Sequence record: PQ100635.1
Direction: 5' to 3' (one strand)
DNA from: Escherichia phage PNJ-9
DNA: 64,000 bases
Shown here: in pieces, positions 33,749 through 41,571 of the stretch
How positions within the stretch are numbered: position 1 is the stretch's first letter
Layout: each line of letters begins with the position of its first letter
The notes under the pieces: model-generated
What the model was told of the DNA's origin: nothing
Databases searched by the model: none
The model's input: only the letters and a program-made list of their open reading frames with translations
Position numbers and translations under genes: made by a program

Positions 33749-34384
33749 ATGAAAACTACTCCTATTACTATCGCTATTGACGCAATCATAAAACAATCTT
33801 CTTCTTTGGCCGCTATGGCCAAAGTAATTAGTCAAAACCCTGCTCGTTATAATGCTATTCTAGAAACTCTTCGACGCCCGGGACTTAGTAATTATGAAAG
33901 CCGAGTAATTATTACAGGTGTTGGTAAGAATGCTAATATTGCAACTAAAGCTTCTGAGACATTTGCTTCACTCGGTATCCCGAGTATGTACTTGAACACT
34001 GGGCATTATTCTCACGGTGATGCAGGATTCATTGCGCCTAATGATGTGTTGATTCATATTAGTCGTTCTGGTAAAACTGAAGAAATGATAGGCGTGGCTA
34101 AGCATCTTAAAATGATTCGTCCGAACGTCAAACAGATTCTGTTGCATTGTAACCCAGACATTCCACAAGAATACGAAGCTCTTTTTGATTATACGTTCTG
34201 TACAGGCATCGCAGTAGAGGTTGATGAGAATTCTCTGGCTCCGACCATGTCCACTACATTGTTGTTAGCGCTTATCGATACGTTTGCTATCAACCTTTCG
34301 TCTGAACGTGGATTTACCTCTAATGACTTCCTTAAGTTCCACCCTGGCGGTGCACTAGGTGCCATGTTACGAGGCGAACAATGA
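33749..34384 (+). CDS. SIS-domain sugar-phosphate isomerase (arabinose-5-P isomerase / phosphoheptose isomerase-like)
   Basis: 211 aa; RVIITGVGKNANIATK...HISRSGKTEE typical SIS motifs; GAGAGAAAT RBS. Confidence 0.7.
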   Translation: MKTTPITIAIDAIIKQSSSLAAMAKVISQNPARYNAILETLRRPGLSNYESRVIITGVGKNANIATKASETFASLGIPSMYLNTGHYSHGDAGFIAPNDVLIHISRSGKTEEMIGVAKHLKMIRPNVKQILLHCNPDIPQEYEALFDYTFCTGIAVEVDENSLAPTMSTTLLLALIDTFAINLSSERGFTSNDFLKFHPGGALGAMLRGEQ

Positions 34385-34565: not shown

Positions 34566-36254
34566 ATGAAAAAAGCTGTTATTCTTGGTGCTGGACTGGC
34601 AACTCGTTTGTATCCAATAACGCATCATATTCCTAAGGTGCTTGTTAACTATAAACAAGACACTATTCTGAGCAATTTGTATACAATTTATTCTGACCTT
34701 GGCGCAGATGAAATTATTGTAGTAGTTCATTCAAAATTTGCTGAAACTGTTCGAGCTTATTGTGAGCAAGAAGGGTTCAATGTGACTATTCGTACAGTTG
34801 ATGAAGCGTATGGTTCTGCTTATGCTCTTGCTAAATTGCACAAAGATTTAGACGGCCATAATGTAATTGTTAACTGGTGTGATATTATTCCTGATTTTGG
34901 TTCGTGGTCTTGGAATGTTAACGCAATCTATGTTAAGGGTGACGAATGTCGATATAATTTCGACGGTGAAAATATCACTAATGTAGGTTCAACAGGTGGT
35001 AATGTTGTAGGAATTTATCAGTTCAAAGACTGGGAATTCTATATGGGTTCTACTGATGAGGAAATTCATGAATACTGCAAAGGACGTGATTTCGTAGAAT
35101 TCCTTTACGGCAGCGCATTCAATAAATCAGAGCTTATGAATATCATCGACCTTGGTGATATGCCTAAACTTGAAAAAGCTCATGAAGTTCGTGAACTTAA
35201 TCGTAGTTTTAATGCAGTTGAAATTGGCGAAGAAACGGTAACAAAGATTGCTTTAACAGAACAGGGCGTTGCACTTCAAAAAGATGAAGTCAATTGGTAT
35301 AAGAAAGTTAAATCAGATTCAGTTCCACGGATTGTAAGTTATCATCCTGGCGGCCACTTTATTATGGAACGTATTAAAGGTAAGCCAGCATTTGAATATA
35401 TTAAATCCAAATCAAGTCTTGCTCGTCCACAAATTGTTGATGCAATTTTAGATGCACTGAAATTCAGCACAGACACTTATTTTGTAAGTCCTGAAACTGT
35501 TCGTCGTGATTTCACTAAAGAATTCTATACTAAAGTTATTGATCGTTGTGAAAGTATTCAACCATTGATTGATTCATTTGGTAAAATCACACATGTGAAC
35601 TACACTAAGATTGGGCGTCTGAAGCCAATGTTGAAACAAGCTTTAGAACACCTTATTCGTTATCATAACCGTTCTCAGGGACAGTACTCTGTTATTCATG
35701 GTGACCCGAACTTCAGTAATACTATGATTACTGATAATGGTGAAGTCAAGTTTATCGACCCTCGTGGATATTTTGGTGAAACCAAGATTTATGGGCCAAA
35801 ATTGTATGATGAAGCTAAAGTGCTTTACGCTGTTTCAGGTTATGATGAATTCAACGCTAATCCGACTTGGGGACAGTTTACTATTGATGAAACAACTTGT
35901 AATGTGACTATTAACATCAATCCGTTAGTTTACAAATATGGAAAGATGAGTTCGTTTAATGAGTATCATCATTTGGCTGTAGCAATTATCTGGATTGCAT
36001 TAGGTGGTTATTTCAAGAATAATCCACTTAAAGCGGTAGCCGCATATTATAAAGGTATGGAACTTCTGACTAAGCAATTACGTAATATGGGCCGTGTACT
36101 TCAAGACGGCTCTATTAGTTATGATGTAGCAGAACCTGTAACGGCTACTCTGATTACAAAAAATCCTGGTAAATGGGTACTAACTGATAAAGAAACTGGT
36201 GTTTCTTATCGTCCAATCGGTGGCGATATCACTCATCAATGGGAACGAATCTAA
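34566..36254 (+). CDS. bifunctional sugar-1-phosphate nucleotidyltransferase / kinase-fold protein
   Basis: 562 aa; N-terminal ILGAGLATRLYPIT..PK motif; C-terminal HGDPNFSN...IDPRG aminoglycoside-phosphotransferase-like kinase motif. Confidence 0.7.
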   Translation: MKKAVILGAGLATRLYPITHHIPKVLVNYKQDTILSNLYTIYSDLGADEIIVVVHSKFAETVRAYCEQEGFNVTIRTVDEAYGSAYALAKLHKDLDGHNVIVNWCDIIPDFGSWSWNVNAIYVKGDECRYNFDGENITNVGSTGGNVVGIYQFKDWEFYMGSTDEEIHEYCKGRDFVEFLYGSAFNKSELMNIIDLGDMPKLEKAHEVRELNRSFNAVEIGEETVTKIALTEQGVALQKDEVNWYKKVKSDSVPRIVSYHPGGHFIMERIKGKPAFEYIKSKSSLARPQIVDAILDALKFSTDTYFVSPETVRRDFTKEFYTKVIDRCESIQPLIDSFGKITHVNYTKIGRLKPMLKQALEHLIRYHNRSQGQYSVIHGDPNFSNTMITDNGEVKFIDPRGYFGETKIYGPKLYDEAKVLYAVSGYDEFNANPTWGQFTIDETTCNVTININPLVYKYGKMSSFNEYHHLAVAIIWIALGGYFKNNPLKAVAAYYKGMELLTKQLRNMGRVLQDGSISYDVAEPVTATLITKNPGKWVLTDKETGVSYRPIGGDITHQWERI

Positions 36255-36640
36255 TGCACCGTGTAAAAAACATGCTTAATCTTTGTTTTGATGTCGATGA
36301 TTGCATCACGGAATGGAATAACAATCGTGATTACGTGAACTTCAAACCAGACGTCGAAATGGTGTCTGCCATTAATGCCCTATATGATGCAGGGCATACA
36401 ATAACGCTTTACACTGCTCGCGGTATGAAGTCAGTCGGTCCTGGTCGTATAGCAATTGACATTCTCCCAAGTCTGATTCAGAACTTGGCAAACATTGGAT
36501 TGAAGTACCATAATTTGCTAACACATAAACCAGTATATGATTGGATTATCGACGACAAAGCTATGCGTCCTGACGAATTCAAAGCTCTTATGAATAAAGG
36601 CGAATTCGAAACATTTAAATCATATAAACCGAATCTATAA
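36254..36640 (+). CDS. HAD-superfamily phosphatase-like protein
   Basis: 128 aa from ATG in TAATG overlap; FDVDDCIT motif I-like; track ORF begins 36239. Confidence 0.6.
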   Translation: MHRVKNMLNLCFDVDDCITEWNNNRDYVNFKPDVEMVSAINALYDAGHTITLYTARGMKSVGPGRIAIDILPSLIQNLANIGLKYHNLLTHKPVYDWIIDDKAMRPDEFKALMNKGEFETFKSYKPNL

Positions 36641-36694: not shown

Positions 36695-37855
36695 ATGAAT
36701 ACCTTTAAAATCGGAACGAATTTTGATTTAGCTCTTCTTGATAAAATCGTAGAGCTCAATAAAACTTATCCTAATAGCTTGATAAACGAAGTATACGGCT
36801 CTACCAGAGAAATGGCTTTTGTAGCAGCCAGACCTGATTTTAGGCTTCCTGACGTTGACAAAAAGATGTTAGAAGATTACGTTAAACGTTGTAACGAATT
36901 AGGTATTTGCTTTAACTATACACTCAACACGATAAATCCTGGTTCAAAAAGAGAACTAGTTGAGTGGAAGAAGAAAGCTATTCAGGATTATGTTCAGTAT
37001 CTTTGGTCAATAGGCGTATGGCGTATTACTATCGCTAACCCTGTTGTTATGGAAATTGTTCGTGAAGTCAATAAAGACATTGAGATTGAAGTTTCAACAA
37101 TTCTACATGTCGATGCTGTAACTCAAATCAAATACTTGCATGACCAATATAATATCAAAAAGGTCTGCTGTGGAATTCATAAGAACCGTTCAGTTTCTTT
37201 CCTGAAGCGTGCAGCAGAGTTTTGTAATAAGAACAATATAATATTTGAAGTTCTTGTAAATGAGTTCTGTTCTAATGCTGGTAAAGGGTATACAACACAT
37301 TGTAGCTATCGTGACTCTTGCTATATTTTCCATAGCACCGATGTTACAGTAGATGATGCTAAATCCTTAAACGGATATCCAATGCAGCACTGTATTAAAG
37401 CTCGTGATACAGACCCATTTAACTGGTTGAGAACTCGTTTTGTTCGTCCTCAAGATTTGAAACTTTATAATGATATTGGTATCACTCAATTCAAAGTTTC
37501 AGGACGTACAGGTAGCACAGACTACATTTTGAAAGTTCTTGAAGCTTATGCTTCCGAAAAATTTGAAGGTAATTTGTTGGAATTGTGGAAGCCTTTAGAG
37601 ACCATTTTCACTCTTGAAAATGAGACCGAGTTTTCACATACGGTAAATATTGAAACCTCTTTGTTAGATGGCTTTTTAGAAAAAAGGTGGTTCAGACATC
37701 CAGATTTCGATTGTGCTAATGAAATCTGCGGGACGACGTGTACATATTGTGAAAGATATTATAAACGTCAATTATCTAAAAACGGGTTAGCAGAAAACTC
37801 TATATCTATTATTGATATAACTAACTCTGATGACGCTTTGAGGTACCCGGAATGA
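36695..37855 (+). CDS. TIM-barrel-like protein with C-terminal Cys cluster (possible peptidase-U32-family Fe-S enzyme)
   Basis: 386 aa; CANEICGTTCTYC (C-x4-C-x3-C-x2-C); loose resemblance to U32 family; function unassigned. Confidence 0.55.
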   Translation: MNTFKIGTNFDLALLDKIVELNKTYPNSLINEVYGSTREMAFVAARPDFRLPDVDKKMLEDYVKRCNELGICFNYTLNTINPGSKRELVEWKKKAIQDYVQYLWSIGVWRITIANPVVMEIVREVNKDIEIEVSTILHVDAVTQIKYLHDQYNIKKVCCGIHKNRSVSFLKRAAEFCNKNNIIFEVLVNEFCSNAGKGYTTHCSYRDSCYIFHSTDVTVDDAKSLNGYPMQHCIKARDTDPFNWLRTRFVRPQDLKLYNDIGITQFKVSGRTGSTDYILKVLEAYASEKFEGNLLELWKPLETIFTLENETEFSHTVNIETSLLDGFLEKRWFRHPDFDCANEICGTTCTYCERYYKRQLSKNGLAENSISIIDITNSDDALRYPE

Positions 37856-37936
37856 TTTCTAGAAAAACTTTTAACCACCAACTTAACGAAGAGATTTTGA
37901 CTATGAAAATTAACAGCAACGAACAAATTCTTAAAA

Positions 37937-37956
37937 AGGCCCTGATGGGCCTTTTT
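37937..37956 (+). terminator. rho-independent terminator
   Basis: AGGCCC-TGAT-GGGCCT stem-loop followed by TTTTT. Confidence 0.65.
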
Positions 37957-38091
37957 AAAACTAAAGCGGCTAAAGTGATTAAAGAACCTGTTTAATTGGA
38001 ATACTACGCTGATGCATTTCTTCATAGTGTTCTTGGAAGTATCGATGCTGAAGCTTTACGTTATATCAACATTGTCAAGAAATTCAAATAA

Positions 38092-38114
38092 GCTTTACGA
38101 ATTGAGTATATAAT
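38092..38114 (+). promoter_or_regulatory. middle promoter candidate (GCTTTA box, 11 bp, TATAAT) upstream of gene 42
   Basis: Read directly. Confidence 0.45.
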
Positions 38115-38133
38115 AAATTGTATTGAGGTAAAC

Positions 38134-38850
38134 ATGGGAAAACATAACACAATGAAATATATCAAAGCCGCAGATTTTCAAACCGCATTTAAAGCAGTCA
38201 ATCGTGAAATTTTAGAAAACCCGGAATTCGTAACTGATTCTCGTATTGGACGTTGTAATGAAATTGGGTCTATGACAGTAGTTGTTGATACCCCTTCATC
38301 ATTCAAAATGACCGACCCACGTATTAACCGCATCTCTTATGAATATGCCGAAGACTTCTGGAAATTTATGATTTCTGGTGGTACTGATGCAGAAGAAGCA
38401 TTTAAGGCATATCCTAATGTCGCTAAATTTATTTCTAAACCAAAATCAGATGCTTTGCCTGCGAACTTCAACACTTTCTATGGTCCTCGCATTGCGGCCC
38501 AATTACCAACTCTTCTAAAAGAACTTAAAGAGAAACCTAACTCTCGAAGAGTTGTGTTCCAAATTCTAGAAAGTTCTGATCAGGCTTTGCTTGATTCGGA
38601 TGAAACGCTTGAATATCCATGTACTGACTCAGTGACTTATTATATTCGTGATGGTAAGCTTTATACCCACTGTCATATGCGTTCTCAGAACTGTGCTGTT
38701 GTTATGCAGTTGGATTTTTATCTCCAAGGAAAATTACTTCATTATATCGCTAACGAATGTGGTGTAGAAGTTGGTGATTATACTCATACCATGGTAAGTG
38801 CCCATGTGTTTGAACGTGATTTTGATTATGTTAAAGGATTCCTTGACTAA
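38134..38850 (+). CDS. 42: dCMP hydroxymethylase gp42 (thymidylate-synthase fold)
   Basis: 238 aa; CTDSVTYYIRDGKLYTHCHMRSQNCAVVMQLDF aligns with T4 gp42 active-site region from memory. Confidence 0.8.
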   Translation: MGKHNTMKYIKAADFQTAFKAVNREILENPEFVTDSRIGRCNEIGSMTVVVDTPSSFKMTDPRINRISYEYAEDFWKFMISGGTDAEEAFKAYPNVAKFISKPKSDALPANFNTFYGPRIAAQLPTLLKELKEKPNSRRVVFQILESSDQALLDSDETLEYPCTDSVTYYIRDGKLYTHCHMRSQNCAVVMQLDFYLQGKLLHYIANECGVEVGDYTHTMVSAHVFERDFDYVKGFLD

Positions 38851-39749
38851 TGGCTATTTTCCGCGTACCTATCTTGAGTATGCGGTCTTATGAAACTGGT
38901 CAGTATGCTATCCTTAAGGATGGCAACTTCCAACTTCATTTGCACCGTGCTAATCCAGGTGATGTAATTACATATCCACGTAATGCATCTGATATTAAAG
39001 AATGTGAACGTCTTTTCCCAGAATTTAAGTTTGTTCCATTATGGTATAAAGATAACGCATATAACACTCGTAAATATTTCTGGTCTGAAAATGAATTTGT
39101 GGTTGATTCATTAATTGCTTATTATGATTGTGATTTTCTAATCACAGATATCACTGGATATGACGGCGCTTTTGATGTGGAATTCAATTTCAATATCACT
39201 GCAGACCCTAATAAACCACGTTTTTATATTGACGAATTCTTAAAAACCGATATGTTGTCGGTTAATCGTTCACTTCAAACTACTGTGTTGAATAAACGTC
39301 AAAAGGAAGTGCTGGTTAACGCTGGTGCCGATGGTAATAAGATTATCGTAACCCAGAAAGTTATACGTCCTTCCATCATGCAGCGTCTTGTAGGTGATTT
39401 GGCTCCTATTCATCTAGATGGTATTTTTCATCCATTTCGAATTAGTGACCCGTGCTATCGTTTTGAACAAGTGGTTGAATGTGCAATTCAATTAGGTCAA
39501 CCGCTTTATATAACCGATCCAAATAATAGCTTCGACAGAAATAAGTATCCTGAAGAAGCGCTGATTCGAATTTTTAAACCAACTAAAACTGAGTACTATC
39601 AAATTCTTAAAGGACGTCCGAAGATTCAATATTTCGAAAATCCTGAAGAAGTATTTCATCCAGGTCTTGGCGAGTTCATCTACTTTAACGCTTTAATTTC
39701 TTCGCCGTATAATATACCTAAATATGAAGATGTTGTAATCGAGGAATAA
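38850..39749 (+). CDS. hypothetical protein (299 aa) in the position occupied by beta-glucosyltransferase in T4; candidate DNA sugar-transferase
   Basis: TAATG-coupled to gene 42; no recognisable motif; functional call by synteny only. Confidence 0.55.
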   Translation: MAIFRVPILSMRSYETGQYAILKDGNFQLHLHRANPGDVITYPRNASDIKECERLFPEFKFVPLWYKDNAYNTRKYFWSENEFVVDSLIAYYDCDFLITDITGYDGAFDVEFNFNITADPNKPRFYIDEFLKTDMLSVNRSLQTTVLNKRQKEVLVNAGADGNKIIVTQKVIRPSIMQRLVGDLAPIHLDGIFHPFRISDPCYRFEQVVECAIQLGQPLYITDPNNSFDRNKYPEEALIRIFKPTKTEYYQILKGRPKIQYFENPEEVFHPGLGEFIYFNALISSPYNIPKYEDVVIEE

Positions 39750-39750
39750 A

Positions 39751-40299
39751 ATGGCTAAAATTATTTTAGTAGATGGCCCGGATAATGCTGGTAAAACAAC
39801 TTTCATTAATGACATAATGGAAATTAGTGAAAGATATGTAAAGATTGATTTCCCTAAACGAACAGTTGATGGACGTTTCGATGTTAAGTCTCGAAATGAA
39901 GTTGGCTGTTTCGAAACGATGTTGAATTATTTAGACCCTACTAAGATTTATCTGTTAGACCGTGGATATATTAGTAACTGGGTTTATGGACGTATTCGAC
40001 AAGATGCGGACTCGGTTCTTGACGTTTATGAACAGGATTATGTTCGTCTTTGCCAAAACCATGATGTGTTCACAATTATTTTAACACGTAACGAAATGAC
40101 TGAAAGTTTTGAAGACGACCTTATTACTTTGTCTTCGTTCGGTTTTAATACAGTCATTTCATATTTTGAAGAGTTTGCAATTCATAACGAAATCCAAACG
40201 TATCAATTACTTAATCATGATGGTGCTAACAAAGTTATAGGATTTAATGCAAGCGAACGTAATAATTTGATTACAGAAATTATCAAATGGGCTCGTTAA
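39751..40299 (+). CDS. P-loop kinase (thymidylate/deoxynucleoside-kinase-like)
   Basis: 182 aa; Walker A VDGPDNAGKTT and LLDRGY motif. Confidence 0.6.
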   Translation: MAKIILVDGPDNAGKTTFINDIMEISERYVKIDFPKRTVDGRFDVKSRNEVGCFETMLNYLDPTKIYLLDRGYISNWVYGRIRQDADSVLDVYEQDYVRLCQNHDVFTIILTRNEMTESFEDDLITLSSFGFNTVISYFEEFAIHNEIQTYQLLNHDGANKVIGFNASERNNLITEIIKWAR

Positions 40300-40320
40300 G
40301 AGCCTGTTTAAAGTTTTAAA

Positions 40321-40345
40321 TGCTGTATAACCCTTAGTATATAAT
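40321..40345 (+). promoter_or_regulatory. middle promoter candidate (TGCTGTA box, 12 bp, TATAAT) upstream of uvsX
   Basis: Read directly. Confidence 0.4.
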
Positions 40346-40398
40346 CGTCTTATCTTTTAAACATGAGTAAAATATAATGATGCCTATGGAAAAATACA

Positions 40399-41571
40399 AT
40401 GTCTGATTTAAAATCTCGTCTGATTAAAGCTTCTACTTCTAAAATGACTGCAGACTTGACTAAGTCTAAGCTGTTTAATAATCGTGATGAAGTCCCTACT
40501 CGTATTCCGATGTTGAATATTGCATTAGGTGGTGCACTGAATGCCGGGTTGCAATCAGGCTTAACTATTTTTGCTGCTCCTTCTAAACACTTTAAAACGT
40601 TGTTTGGACTGACCATGGTTGCAGCATATATGAAGAAATATAAAGATGCAATCTGTTTGTTCTATGATTCAGAATTTGGTGCTTCAGAATCTTATTTTCG
40701 TTCAATGGGTGTTGATTTAGACCGTGTAGTTCATACACCAATTCAGTCAGTCGAACAACTTAAAGTTGATATGACTAATCAGCTTGACGCGATTGAACGC
40801 GGTGATAAAGTTATTATCTTTATCGATTCAATCGGTAATACTGCATCTAAGAAAGAAACTGAAGATGCATTGAACGAGAAAGTTGTAGGTGATATGTCTC
40901 GTGCTAAGGCACTTAAATCTCTTTTCCGTATTGTGACCCCGTATCTGACTATTAAAGATATTCCGTGTGTTGCAATTAACCATACCGCAATGGAAATTGG
41001 CGGATTGTATCCTAAAGAGATTATGGGCGGTGGTACAGGTATTCTTTATTCTGCTAACACTGTATTCTTTATCTCTAAACGTCAGGTTAAAGAAGGTACA
41101 GAATTGACCGGTTACGACTTCACGTTGAAAGCAGAAAAATCTCGTACAGTTAAAGAGAAATCTACTTTCCCGATCACGGTTAATTTCGATGGTGGTATCG
41201 ACCCATTCAGTGGCTTGTTAGAAATGGCAACTGAAATTGGTTTTGTAGTTAAGCCTAAAGCTGGTTGGTATGCTCGTGAATTCCTTGACGAAGAAACAGG
41301 TGAAATGATTCGTGAAGAAAAATCATGGCGTGCTAAAGCTACTGATTGTGTAGAATTCTGGGGACCGTTGTTTAAACACAAACCTTTCCGAGATGCAATT
41401 GAAACTAAATATAAACTAGGTGCTATCTCTTCTATTAAAGAAGTTGATGACGCTGTTAACGACCTTATTAATTGCAAAGCAACAACTAAAGTTCCGGTTA
41501 AAACTTCTGATGCTCCGTCTGCAGCAGATATAGAAAACGACCTTGACGAAATGGAAGATTTCGATGAATAA
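40399..41571 (+). CDS. uvsX: RecA-like recombinase UvsX
   Basis: 390 aa; RecA-fold ATPase; position between 42 and 40; T4 UvsX is 391 aa. Confidence 0.9.
   Translation: MSDLKSRLIKASTSKMTADLTKSKLFNNRDEVPTRIPMLNIALGGALNAGLQSGLTIFAAPSKHFKTLFGLTMVAAYMKKYKDAICLFYDSEFGASESYFRSMGVDLDRVVHTPIQSVEQLKVDMTNQLDAIERGDKVIIFIDSIGNTASKKETEDALNEKVVGDMSRAKALKSLFRIVTPYLTIKDIPCVAINHTAMEIGGLYPKEIMGGGTGILYSANTVFFISKRQVKEGTELTGYDFTLKAEKSRTVKEKSTFPITVNFDGGIDPFSGLLEMATEIGFVVKPKAGWYAREFLDEETGEMIREEKSWRAKATDCVEFWGPLFKHKPFRDAIETKYKLGAISSIKEVDDAVNDLINCKATTKVPVKTSDAPSAADIENDLDEMEDFDE

Follow-up and report, generated by a model that had tools for sequence, protein, structure and literature searches.

A thymidylate-kinase-fold P-loop kinase in the base-modification cluster of an RB69-like phage, a candidate kinase for 5-substituted dCMP

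Which molecule is phosphorylated by the small P-loop kinase that Escherichia phage PNJ-9 encodes directly behind a DNA glycosyltransferase gene? The window that we analysed, a stretch of 64,000 nucleotides (PQ100635.1), belongs to a Mosigvirus with 98-99% identity to RB69. A megablast search with positions 38000-40400 against the phage collection returned 153 records at 95-99% identity, all of them RB69-like Mosigvirus (top match 98.8%, RB69 98.0%). The modified base of RB69 DNA is 5-hydroxycytosine that bears one or two arabinose units, rather than hydroxymethylcytosine (Lee et al., NAR 2026, PMC13326640). This recently resolved hypermodification blocks many restriction enzymes and shapes the sensitivity of phages to defence systems. 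In the literature examined, the kinase and a U32-family protein are the two members of the gene cluster without an experimental role. The initial annotation had proposed an extra dNMP-type kinase that acts on a modified nucleotide or on a sugar intermediate. Our analysis partly supports this interpretation, which was right on the fold, on the extra copy and on the coupling to the neighbouring gene, and is outdated with respect to the base.

The kinase gene and its neighbours

The kinase reading frame (39751-40299, plus strand) comprises 182 codons, begins with ATG and ends at a TAA stop codon (40297-40299). Its 182-residue product is a P-loop kinase of the thymidylate kinase (Tmk) fold and the ortholog of RB69p045 (NP_861735.1). 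RefSeq labels RB69p045 a 'thymidylate kinase', and several GenBank records use the same name for its orthologs. A single base separates the kinase ATG from the TAA stop codon (39747-39749) of the glycosyltransferase gene that precedes it, and a Shine-Dalgarno-like GAGGA run (39741-39745, plus strand) can be read within the 3' end of that gene. With this gap and the GAGGA inside the upstream gene, the coupling to the beta-gt-slot gene that had been proposed is real at the level of the sequence, and the two genes look translationally coupled. A promoter and terminator scan of positions 37800-40500 found no more sites than in shuffled sequence.

The local gene order is DNA polymerase, isomerase, nucleotidyltransferase/APH-kinase fusion, HAD phosphatase, U32 protein, a small ORF, ThyA homolog, glycosyltransferase, kinase and uvsX (40399-41571). 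The arabinose-5-phosphate isomerase (33749-34384, plus strand), taken from the ORF list, is the ortholog of RB69p055, with 98% identity. The bifunctional nucleotidyltransferase and APH-like kinase (34566-36254, plus strand; ortholog of RB69p052:53) matches Pfam NTP_transferase and, weakly, the APH and Fructosamin_kin models, while the HAD-type phosphatase (36239-36640, plus strand; ortholog of RB69p051) matches NCBIfam TIGR01689 at E 4e-13. Both are assigned by analogy (PMC13326640), as AfhE-like and AfhF-like proteins respectively. The sugar branch is modelled on phage HY126, where AfhE is reported as the arabinose-5-phosphate kinase/pyrophosphorylase and AfhF as the phosphatase (PMC13326640, citing He et al. 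2026).

The ThyA homolog (38134-38850, plus strand) is the ortholog of RB69 gp48 and a putative 5-hydroxy-dCMP synthase. It matches Pfam Thymidylat_synt at E 1.9e-15 and carries the N169/D177 signature (RSQNCAVVMQLD), as in 5-hydroxy-dCMP synthases and not as in dCMP hydroxymethylase. RB69 gp48 itself makes 5-hydroxy-dCMP, with D169N as its signature (PMC13326640). The 299-residue glycosyltransferase (38850-39749, plus strand) occupies the beta-gt slot of T4, and is assigned through PHROG 3891 and the RB69 annotation as the ortholog of RB69p046:47, the predicted DNA arabinosyltransferase 1 (PMC13326640, Table 1). Given the N169/D177 ThyA homolog and the arabinosyl-5-hydroxycytosine chemistry of RB69-type DNA (PMC13326640), hm-dCMP, which had been named as a candidate substrate, is the wrong candidate, and 5-hydroxy-dCMP the right one. 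A tblastn search with a gp1 ortholog reached a best E of 0.39 in the window, which holds no dNMP kinase of the T4 gene 1 type. This agrees with the earlier claim that gene 1 lies elsewhere and that the kinase is an extra copy.

The kinase gene is real and conserved. Its protein matched 343 phage records in tblastn, at identities from 100% down to ~35%. A word-indexed protein search gave 27 close clusters, and a 20-member profile run against 1.84 billion representatives gave 310 matches at E<=1e-3, 45 of them at E<=1e-10. Together, these searches point to a small and coherent family. Between the Gualtarvirus orthologs of phages MP1 and Rgz1 (59% identity), dN/dS is ~0.19, at near-saturated synonymous sites. 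AlphaFold2 modelled the kinase from the family alignment with a mean pLDDT of 88.1 and a pTM of 0.84.

Fold and residue mapping

By curated thresholds, the kinase is not a bona fide member of the Tmk or the deoxynucleoside kinase family. The Pfam Tmk model PF02223 gave no match at E<=1, and the NCBIfam dTMP kinase model TIGR00041 scored 15.6 bits against a cut-off of 83.25, with an alignment confined to the P-loop. For deoxynucleoside kinases (PF01712, dCK/dNK), neither a profile match nor their Arg-rich LID was found in the kinase, and there is no sequence or structural similarity to T4 gp1 (1dek), the gene 1 dNMP kinase. Other Pfam and NCBIfam matches to P-loop families (AAA_14 at E 0.039, MMR_HSR1, IS4 transposase and ABC-F) were dismissed as noise; all matches to unrelated P-loop NTPase families were sub-threshold.

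Family-level comparison points to the thymidylate kinases. PHROG 761 ('thymidylate kinase') matches the kinase at E 5.1e-45, and the protein carries the PHROG 761-type motifs FPK, DR..SN.VY and F.DD. A profile built from alignment A2, which holds 63 diverse family members, retrieved YorR at E 4e-13 and many Tmks at 1e-10 to 1e-8; Tmks are also the best structural matches. In the HMM comparison with the Tmk and deoxynucleoside kinase families that the initial annotation had suggested, Tmks match the family profile, and the curated PF02223, TIGR00041 and dNK cut-offs are not reached. The resemblance to dNMP-type kinases that had been read from the Walker A loop and LLDRGY holds up, as both motifs are present, the family profile finds YorR and the Tmks, and the AlphaFold2 model is confident. 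YorR, a structural-genomics protein of the B. subtilis SPbeta prophage (PDB 2axp/3kb2), gives no substrate information. Unlike the kinase, it has a degenerate P-loop (GPDCCFKS) and no known link to base modification.

With the Tmks (PF02223/TIGR00041; yeast 1tmk, vaccinia 2v54, human 1e2d), the kinase shares the fold, although it is ~30 residues shorter; its model has the predicted Tmk-type alpha/beta fold with a five-stranded core. Common to both are a Walker A motif of the form GxxxxGK[ST] whose loop contains an acidic residue, FP(E/K)R, the DR motif and S..(A/V)Y with its sugar-side Tyr. The DR(Y/H/F) and S..AY pattern is present in the kinase save for the third position of the former, which is G72 and not Y/H/F. 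By profile alignment, two further Tmk hallmarks are missing from the kinase: the catalytic Arg in the P-loop (class I) or the LID (class II), and the apparatus of thymine recognition, i.e. the Arg to O4 and the stacking Phe. The kinase is best explained as a small ATP-dependent phosphotransferase of the thymidylate kinase fold, with a predicted activity.

The residue correspondences given here come from a single HMM profile alignment to yeast Tmk (1tmk), not from a superposition. The Walker A loop spans G9-P-D-N-A-G-K-T16 (39775-39798, plus strand) in alignments A1 and A2 and in the alignment to 1tmk. Across the 63 members of A2, G9, G14, K15 and R71 are invariant, and D11 (61 of 63), D70 and Y79 nearly so. 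The motif F34-P-K-R37 (39850-39861, plus strand), with K36 in 53 of the 63, aligns with FPER of eukaryotic and poxviral Tmks (2v54, 1tmk) and its phosphate-binding acceptor-site Arg. The DR(Y)-type motif and S..VY lie together in L68-L-D-R-G-Y-I-S-N-W-V-Y79 (39952-39987, plus strand), in which LLDRGY makes up residues 68-73 (39952-39969); the segment aligns with DRYVYSGVAY of yeast Tmk, and S75 and Y79 are conserved in the family.

Conserved between the kinase and yeast Tmk are D11 (yeast D14, which contacts the sugar 3'-OH), K15 (K18, the P-loop lysine), R37 (R41, which binds the acceptor phosphate), D70-R71 (D93-R94, the DR motif) and Y79 (Y102, which lies against C2'). Three positions have changed. 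N12 stands at yeast R15, the catalytic P-loop Arg of class I; E50 stands at R73, which hydrogen-bonds thymine O4; and K46, which is variable, stands at F69, the base-stacking residue. E50 lies in the helix S47-R-N-E-V...F-E-T-M-L58 (39889-39924, plus strand; HMM alignment); it is invariant among close relatives, and E or D occupies the position in 41 of the 63 A2 members. The LID-equivalent loop bears an acidic, family-specific motif, F120-E-D-D-L-I125 (40108-40125, plus strand), which is invariant in A1 and aligns with the LID of C. albicans Tmk, WGDERYE. In A2, D122 is found in 52 and D123 in 54 of the 63 members, and the pLDDT of the model falls to 66 at this loop. Whereas the Tmk LID, (F/W)G.ERYE, contains an Arg, FEDDLI has none, and L124 takes the place of the LID Arg in the profile alignment.

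By alignment, the kinase keeps the phosphate and deoxyribose framework of a dNMP kinase, but neither the contacts that are specific for thymine nor the arginines that usually stabilise the transition state. An acidic residue (E50) in place of R73 is what one would expect if the specificity had switched from thymine to cytosine. As both phosphate-stabilising arginines of Tmk are absent by alignment (N12, L124), the catalytic geometry of the kinase may differ.

Genomic company of the kinase

Across ~345 phage genomes, the co-occurrence of the kinase with the modification cluster is near perfect. There are 348 phage records with the cluster glycosyltransferase and 343 with the kinase (by tblastn). 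The genus counts of the two nearly coincide, and glycosyltransferase/kinase counts are equal in Escherichia (176/176), Acinetobacter (57/57), Shigella (15/15), Enterobacter (9/9), Proteus (7/7) and Yersinia (6/6). The kinase stays in the cluster even though the gene order is shuffled in JS98, in a Klebsiella phage and in IMG/VR contigs. JS98 has the order AfhE-like, phosphatase, kinase, ThyA homolog, glycosyltransferase, uvsX; in the Klebsiella phage it is AfhE-like, phosphatase, kinase, U32, chorismate mutase, ThyA homolog, glycosyltransferase. A cytosine-specific ThyA homolog belongs to the module in the window (two genes upstream of the kinase), in JS98, the Klebsiella phage and Rgz1, and at 16 of 18 IMG/VR loci: 14 have both the ThyA homolog and the glycosyltransferase, and two, on the distant contigs L022 and L023, have the kinase with a ThyA-like gene. 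Of the remaining loci, one (L007) is too short to judge and the other (L016) is Morganella phage MP1, the exception.

In the whole 163-kb genome of MP1, a kinase of 176 residues with all family-invariant residues lies between the polymerase and uvsX. The same genome encodes neither an N169 ThyA homolog nor a glycosyltransferase, and the AfhE-like enzyme, the phosphatase, the U32 protein and the isomerase are missing from it as well. In the sister phage Rgz1, the cluster is complete. The MP1 ortholog is intact and under purifying selection. This means that the kinase can persist alone.

Distant members of the family, matched by the A2 HMM at E 1e-11 to 1e-37, lie in pyrimidine-modification modules of unrelated viruses with family-A polymerases. 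In L022 the order is primase, kinase, MazG-like pyrophosphohydrolase, x, ThyA-like gene (RSCD...D, i.e. D169/D177), x, dCMP deaminase, PolA, with x for a further gene; in L023 it is ThyX, x, kinase, MazG-like, x, x, ThyA-like. On contig L031 the kinase is followed by a glycosyltransferase-like gene and a cytosine-type ThyA homolog. On L029 it is fused to an MBD4-type glycosylase domain, and a glycosyltransferase-like gene and PolA follow. No gp1-type kinase was detectable in the stretches of these four contigs that were examined, and no genes for arabinose activation were detected in distant modules such as L022 and L023. The order ThyA(N169)-glycosyltransferase-kinase-like recurs in Rhizobium phage RL38J1, whose DNA carries hexosyl-5-hydroxycytosine. 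The kinase-like protein of this phage, RL38J1_214, is only marginally related: hhalign gave a probability of 44% against A1, and the A2 HMM matched it at E 7.5e-6, in a search space that was tiny. We count it as an analog and not as an ortholog; any kinship is very distant. In the first 50 kb of Acinetobacter phage SH-Ab 15599, there is no member of the family. From the make-up of the modules in L022, L023, L029, L031 and RL38J1, the recurring partner of the kinase is a cytosine-specific ThyA homolog of the hydroxymethyl or hydroxy type, often together with a dNTP pyrophosphohydrolase.

The fusions to MBD4-type domains form a class of eight representatives of 314-357 residues, which matched solved MBD4 glycosylase domains at E ~1e-18; searches of IMG/VR with a single protein or with alignment A3 found no kinase::glycosylase fusions. 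MBD4 removes, opposite G, the bases that arise when cytosine or a 5-substituted cytosine is deaminated. A comparable architecture is known from SP10 gp186, a fusion of a kinase with an HhH-glycosylase-like domain (PMC5889632). The 5-hmdU DNA kinases (5-HMUDK) are likewise small phage P-loop kinases that travel with a ThyA-family pyrimidine C5-modifying enzyme. Some of them are fusions with an HhH glycosylase-like domain, just as some distant relatives of our kinase are fused to a glycosylase domain. We rejected homology to M6 gp54 and SP10 gp186, with which hhalign aligned only 23-25 P-loop columns. Moreover, 5-HMUDK acts on DNA and creates a leaving group, and the reported glycosylation of 5-hydroxycytosine needs no such step.

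A candidate acceptor and its alternatives

The kinase itself is already known as a predicted enzyme, as the gene is annotated and published work makes the same prediction: RB69p045, DLP3_078 and RL38J1_214 are catalogued as 'nucleotide kinase' of modification clusters, the RB69p045 entry as predicted (PMC13326640). RB69p045 and DLP3_078, whose clusters make arabinosyl-5-hydroxycytosine, show no gene-level difference from the kinase of the window, and they appear there as table entries only. The full Mosigvirus pathway has been described as yet to be characterised (2026 AEM paper). The literature that we searched, which excluded He et al. 2026 and Mahler et al. 2025, contained no assay of the kinase, and a phage Tn-seq preprint offered no essentiality data for the gene.

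We propose that the kinase accepts a 5-substituted dCMP, in this phage 5-hydroxy-dCMP, and give this proposal an even chance of being right. In the following scheme, the acceptor and all residue roles are what we infer. ATP would bind the Walker A loop (K15/T16), with Mg2+ positioned by D70, while R71 together with K36/R37 would hold the 5'-phosphate of the deoxynucleoside monophosphate and D11 and Y79 would contact its deoxyribose. The 5-hydroxy-dCMP would be supplied by the ThyA homolog two genes upstream. Its diphosphate, 5-hydroxy-dCDP, would be converted to the triphosphate by host NDP kinase, 5-hydroxy-dCTP would be incorporated by the phage polymerase, and the adjacent glycosyltransferase would then arabinosylate the base on the DNA. 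The kinase would be passed on together with the ThyA homolog, and often the glycosyltransferase, as a portable module. Viruses without a T4-type gene 1 would have no other enzyme to take the modified monophosphate to the next step; in Mosigvirus, the function of the kinase would overlap in part with that of gp159.

This proposal draws on the fold and motifs, the co-occurrence in Straboviridae, the association with ThyA homologs that modify C5 of cytosine in unrelated viruses, the MBD4-type fusions and the published listing (PMC13326640). Against it count the activity of gp159, the presence of the kinase in MP1 without the cluster, and the missing arginines. The T4 gene 1 dNMP kinase (1dek/1del) and its RB69 ortholog gp159 perform the very step proposed here, the phosphorylation of a 5-substituted dCMP, with hm-dCMP as the T4 substrate and 5-hydroxy-dCMP as that of gp159, which yields the diphosphate in vitro (PMC13326640). 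Co-expression of gp48 and gp159 alone leads to 5-hydroxy-dC in E. coli plasmid DNA (PMC13326640). Since these two proteins suffice, the kinase is not needed for the conversion of 5-hydroxy-dCMP to the diphosphate under those conditions.

A general thymidylate or dNMP kinase, which boosts the supply of dTTP or dNTPs and whose position in the cluster is historical, without a specific tie to the modified base, would fit the database name 'thymidylate kinase', the best structural matches and the retention of the kinase under purifying selection in MP1 without the modification cluster. We consider it unlikely, since the kinase falls short of the curated Tmk models, the Arg to thymine O4 is replaced by an acidic residue in the alignment, and the near-perfect co-occurrence with the cluster is joined by an association with cytosine-specific ThyA homologs in unrelated viruses. 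In addition, dTMP is already handled by the T4-type gene 1 kinase, which, as is established from T4 biochemistry, phosphorylates it. Less probable still is a service to the sugar or the glycosyltransferase, in which the kinase phosphorylates a pentose intermediate or re-phosphorylates UMP or UDP, and so sustains UTP and UDP-arabinose and eases product inhibition of the transferase. Such a role, the sugar part of which the initial annotation had also raised, would suit the translational coupling of the kinase to the glycosyltransferase gene and the neighbouring kinase and glycosyltransferase-like genes in L029, L031 and RL38J1. However, the kinase does not adjoin the glycosyltransferase in JS98 or the Klebsiella phage, it conserves the deoxyribose-contact residues of Tmk, and to our knowledge T4 glucosylates its DNA on a similar scale without a kinase of this type. 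The sugar intermediate is also the weaker option because an AfhE-type enzyme is reported for the arabinose-5-phosphate kinase and pyrophosphorylase steps, with AfhF for the dephosphorylation (PMC13326640, citing He et al. 2026), and because relatives occur where no sugar-activation genes were detected (L022, L023, MP1).

Two readings move the acceptor away from the free monophosphate pool. We give no more weight than to the sugar service to the idea that the kinase represents an uncharacterised Tmk-fold clade, with an acidic LID and no catalytic arginines, and not a redundant copy of gene 1. Here the acceptor would be the 5-hydroxyl of cytosine in DNA or the UDP released by the transferase, and action in tandem with the DNA glycosyltransferase would explain both the recurrent adjacency of the two genes and the MBD4-type fusions of distant relatives. 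More broadly, the kinase could phosphorylate or mark 5-hydroxycytosine in the polymer, as 5-hmdU DNA kinase does with its base, or bind and assist the DNA glycosyltransferase without catalysis. The absence of both typical Tmk arginines by alignment, the fusion of distant members to an MBD4-type DNA glycosylase domain, which resembles the SP10 gp186 fusion (PMC5889632), and the adjoining DNA glycosyltransferase gene would all be in line with this. Yet the profiles of M6 gp54 and SP10 gp186 share only the P-loop with the kinase, which has an intact Walker A loop, D70 and R71, all of them conserved. Furthermore, 5-hydroxycytosine is glycosylated directly from the NDP-sugar, so that no phosphate activation of the base is needed (PMC13326640). 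We regard this last reading as the least probable of all. Improbable, if not quite to the same degree, is an action at another nucleotide level, either as a deoxynucleoside kinase in the salvage of 5-hydroxy-dC or dC, or as a diphosphate kinase that makes 5-hydroxy-dCTP.

A dedicated 5-hydroxy-dCMP kinase would complete the pre-replicative branch of the pathway, would explain how the module can move among unrelated viruses without a T4-type gene 1, and would provide a compact enzyme for the synthesis of 5-hydroxy-dCTP in vitro or in engineered hosts. If the kinase is not such an enzyme, a conserved gene of the module has some other job.

A separate observation concerns the U32-family protein of the cluster (36695-37855, plus strand), the ortholog of RB69p050, which matches Pfam Peptidase_U32 at E 6e-11. 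A small ORF, RB69p049, sits where relatives encode a chorismate mutase; with no Pfam match and no BLASTP similarity, its identity as a chorismate mutase is not supported. The U32 protein itself weakly matches the NCBIfam UbiU model, and in two relatives the gene behind it encodes a type II chorismate mutase. The U32 enzymes RlhA, TrhP and UbiU/V are prephenate-dependent, oxygen-independent hydroxylases. The pairing of U32 protein and chorismate mutase suggests a possible anaerobic route to 5-hydroxycytosine.

Cytosine modification genes in the window

The ThyA homolog of the cluster (window 38134-38850) was probably taken for gene 42, the dCMP hydroxymethylase, in the initial annotation. The protein instead carries the N169/D177 signature (RSQNCAVVMQLD) of 5-hydroxy-dCMP synthases (Lee et al., NAR 2026; PMC13326640). 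Two further cluster genes are intact in PNJ-9. The glycosyltransferase (window 38850-39749; 299 aa) and the nucleotidyltransferase/kinase fusion (window 34566-36254; 562 aa) are each encoded by one unbroken ORF, whereas the RB69 reference has two in each case (p046/p047 and p052/p053, respectively). This agrees with PMC13326640, according to which the splits in both RB69 genes are sequencing errors.

The U32 protein and a possible anaerobic route

The cluster U32 'peptidase' (window 36695-37855) has a weak NCBIfam match to UbiU. Two relatives have a gene for a type II chorismate mutase no more than two genes after the U32 gene: a Klebsiella phage (L003:7688-7930; Pfam CM_2, 39.5 bits) and Morganella phage Rgz1 (L024:18023-18397; 46.1 bits). 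Members of the U32 family, RlhA, TrhP and UbiU/V among them, carry out hydroxylations that depend on prephenate and do not require O2. Together with the UbiU match and the chorismate mutase of the relatives, this suggests that the phage may possess an anaerobic route to 5-hydroxycytosine. In PMC13326640, the protein is listed only as a 'sugar or heterocycle reductase'.

In the window, the U32 gene is followed by a small ORF, the counterpart of RB69p049 (window 37852-38091). Here, a TAA stop (37993-37995) replaces the RB69 CAA codon, shortening the product to 47 aa, compared with 79 aa in RB69. Comparison of this ORF with the chorismate mutase that occupies the slot in relatives revealed no similarity.

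Kinase relatives in other genomic contexts

Morganella phage MP1 (NC_031020) encodes an intact kinase ortholog between polymerase and uvsX (L025:20500-21030). Examination of the whole MP1 genome revealed none of the other 5-hydroxycytosine/arabinose cluster genes; a dCTPase/dUTPase-like gene and a DenB-like endonuclease are retained.

Eight distant members of the kinase family (P0059, P0060, P0065 and five others) carry an MBD4-type mismatch glycosylase domain at their C-terminus as a fusion, which matches solved MBD4 with an E-value of about 1e-18. A fusion of this kind on metagenome contig L029 (L029:70-1092) is followed by a glycosyltransferase-like gene, the N-terminus of which (MRILMIPSFSMRSY) resembles that of the window glycosyltransferase (MAIFRVPILSMRSY; BLASTP E 0.003). 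Two unrelated viral contigs, L022 and L023, each with a distant kinase relative, share a conserved protein of 282 and 261 aa (L022:10902-11750 and L023:7382-8167), located between MazG-like and ThyA-like genes and without a match in a Pfam search.

The kinase 3' end

The stop codon of the kinase gene lies within the loop of a short hairpin, GGCTC-GTTAA-GAGCC (window 40290-40317), beyond which comes a T-rich stretch. The hairpin was not called by a consensus terminator scan; one GenBank entry, OL960577, has an annotated terminator beneath its match to the kinase. Ahead of uvsX, near window 40318-40345, we also observed a TATAAT and an upstream box containing TGCT.
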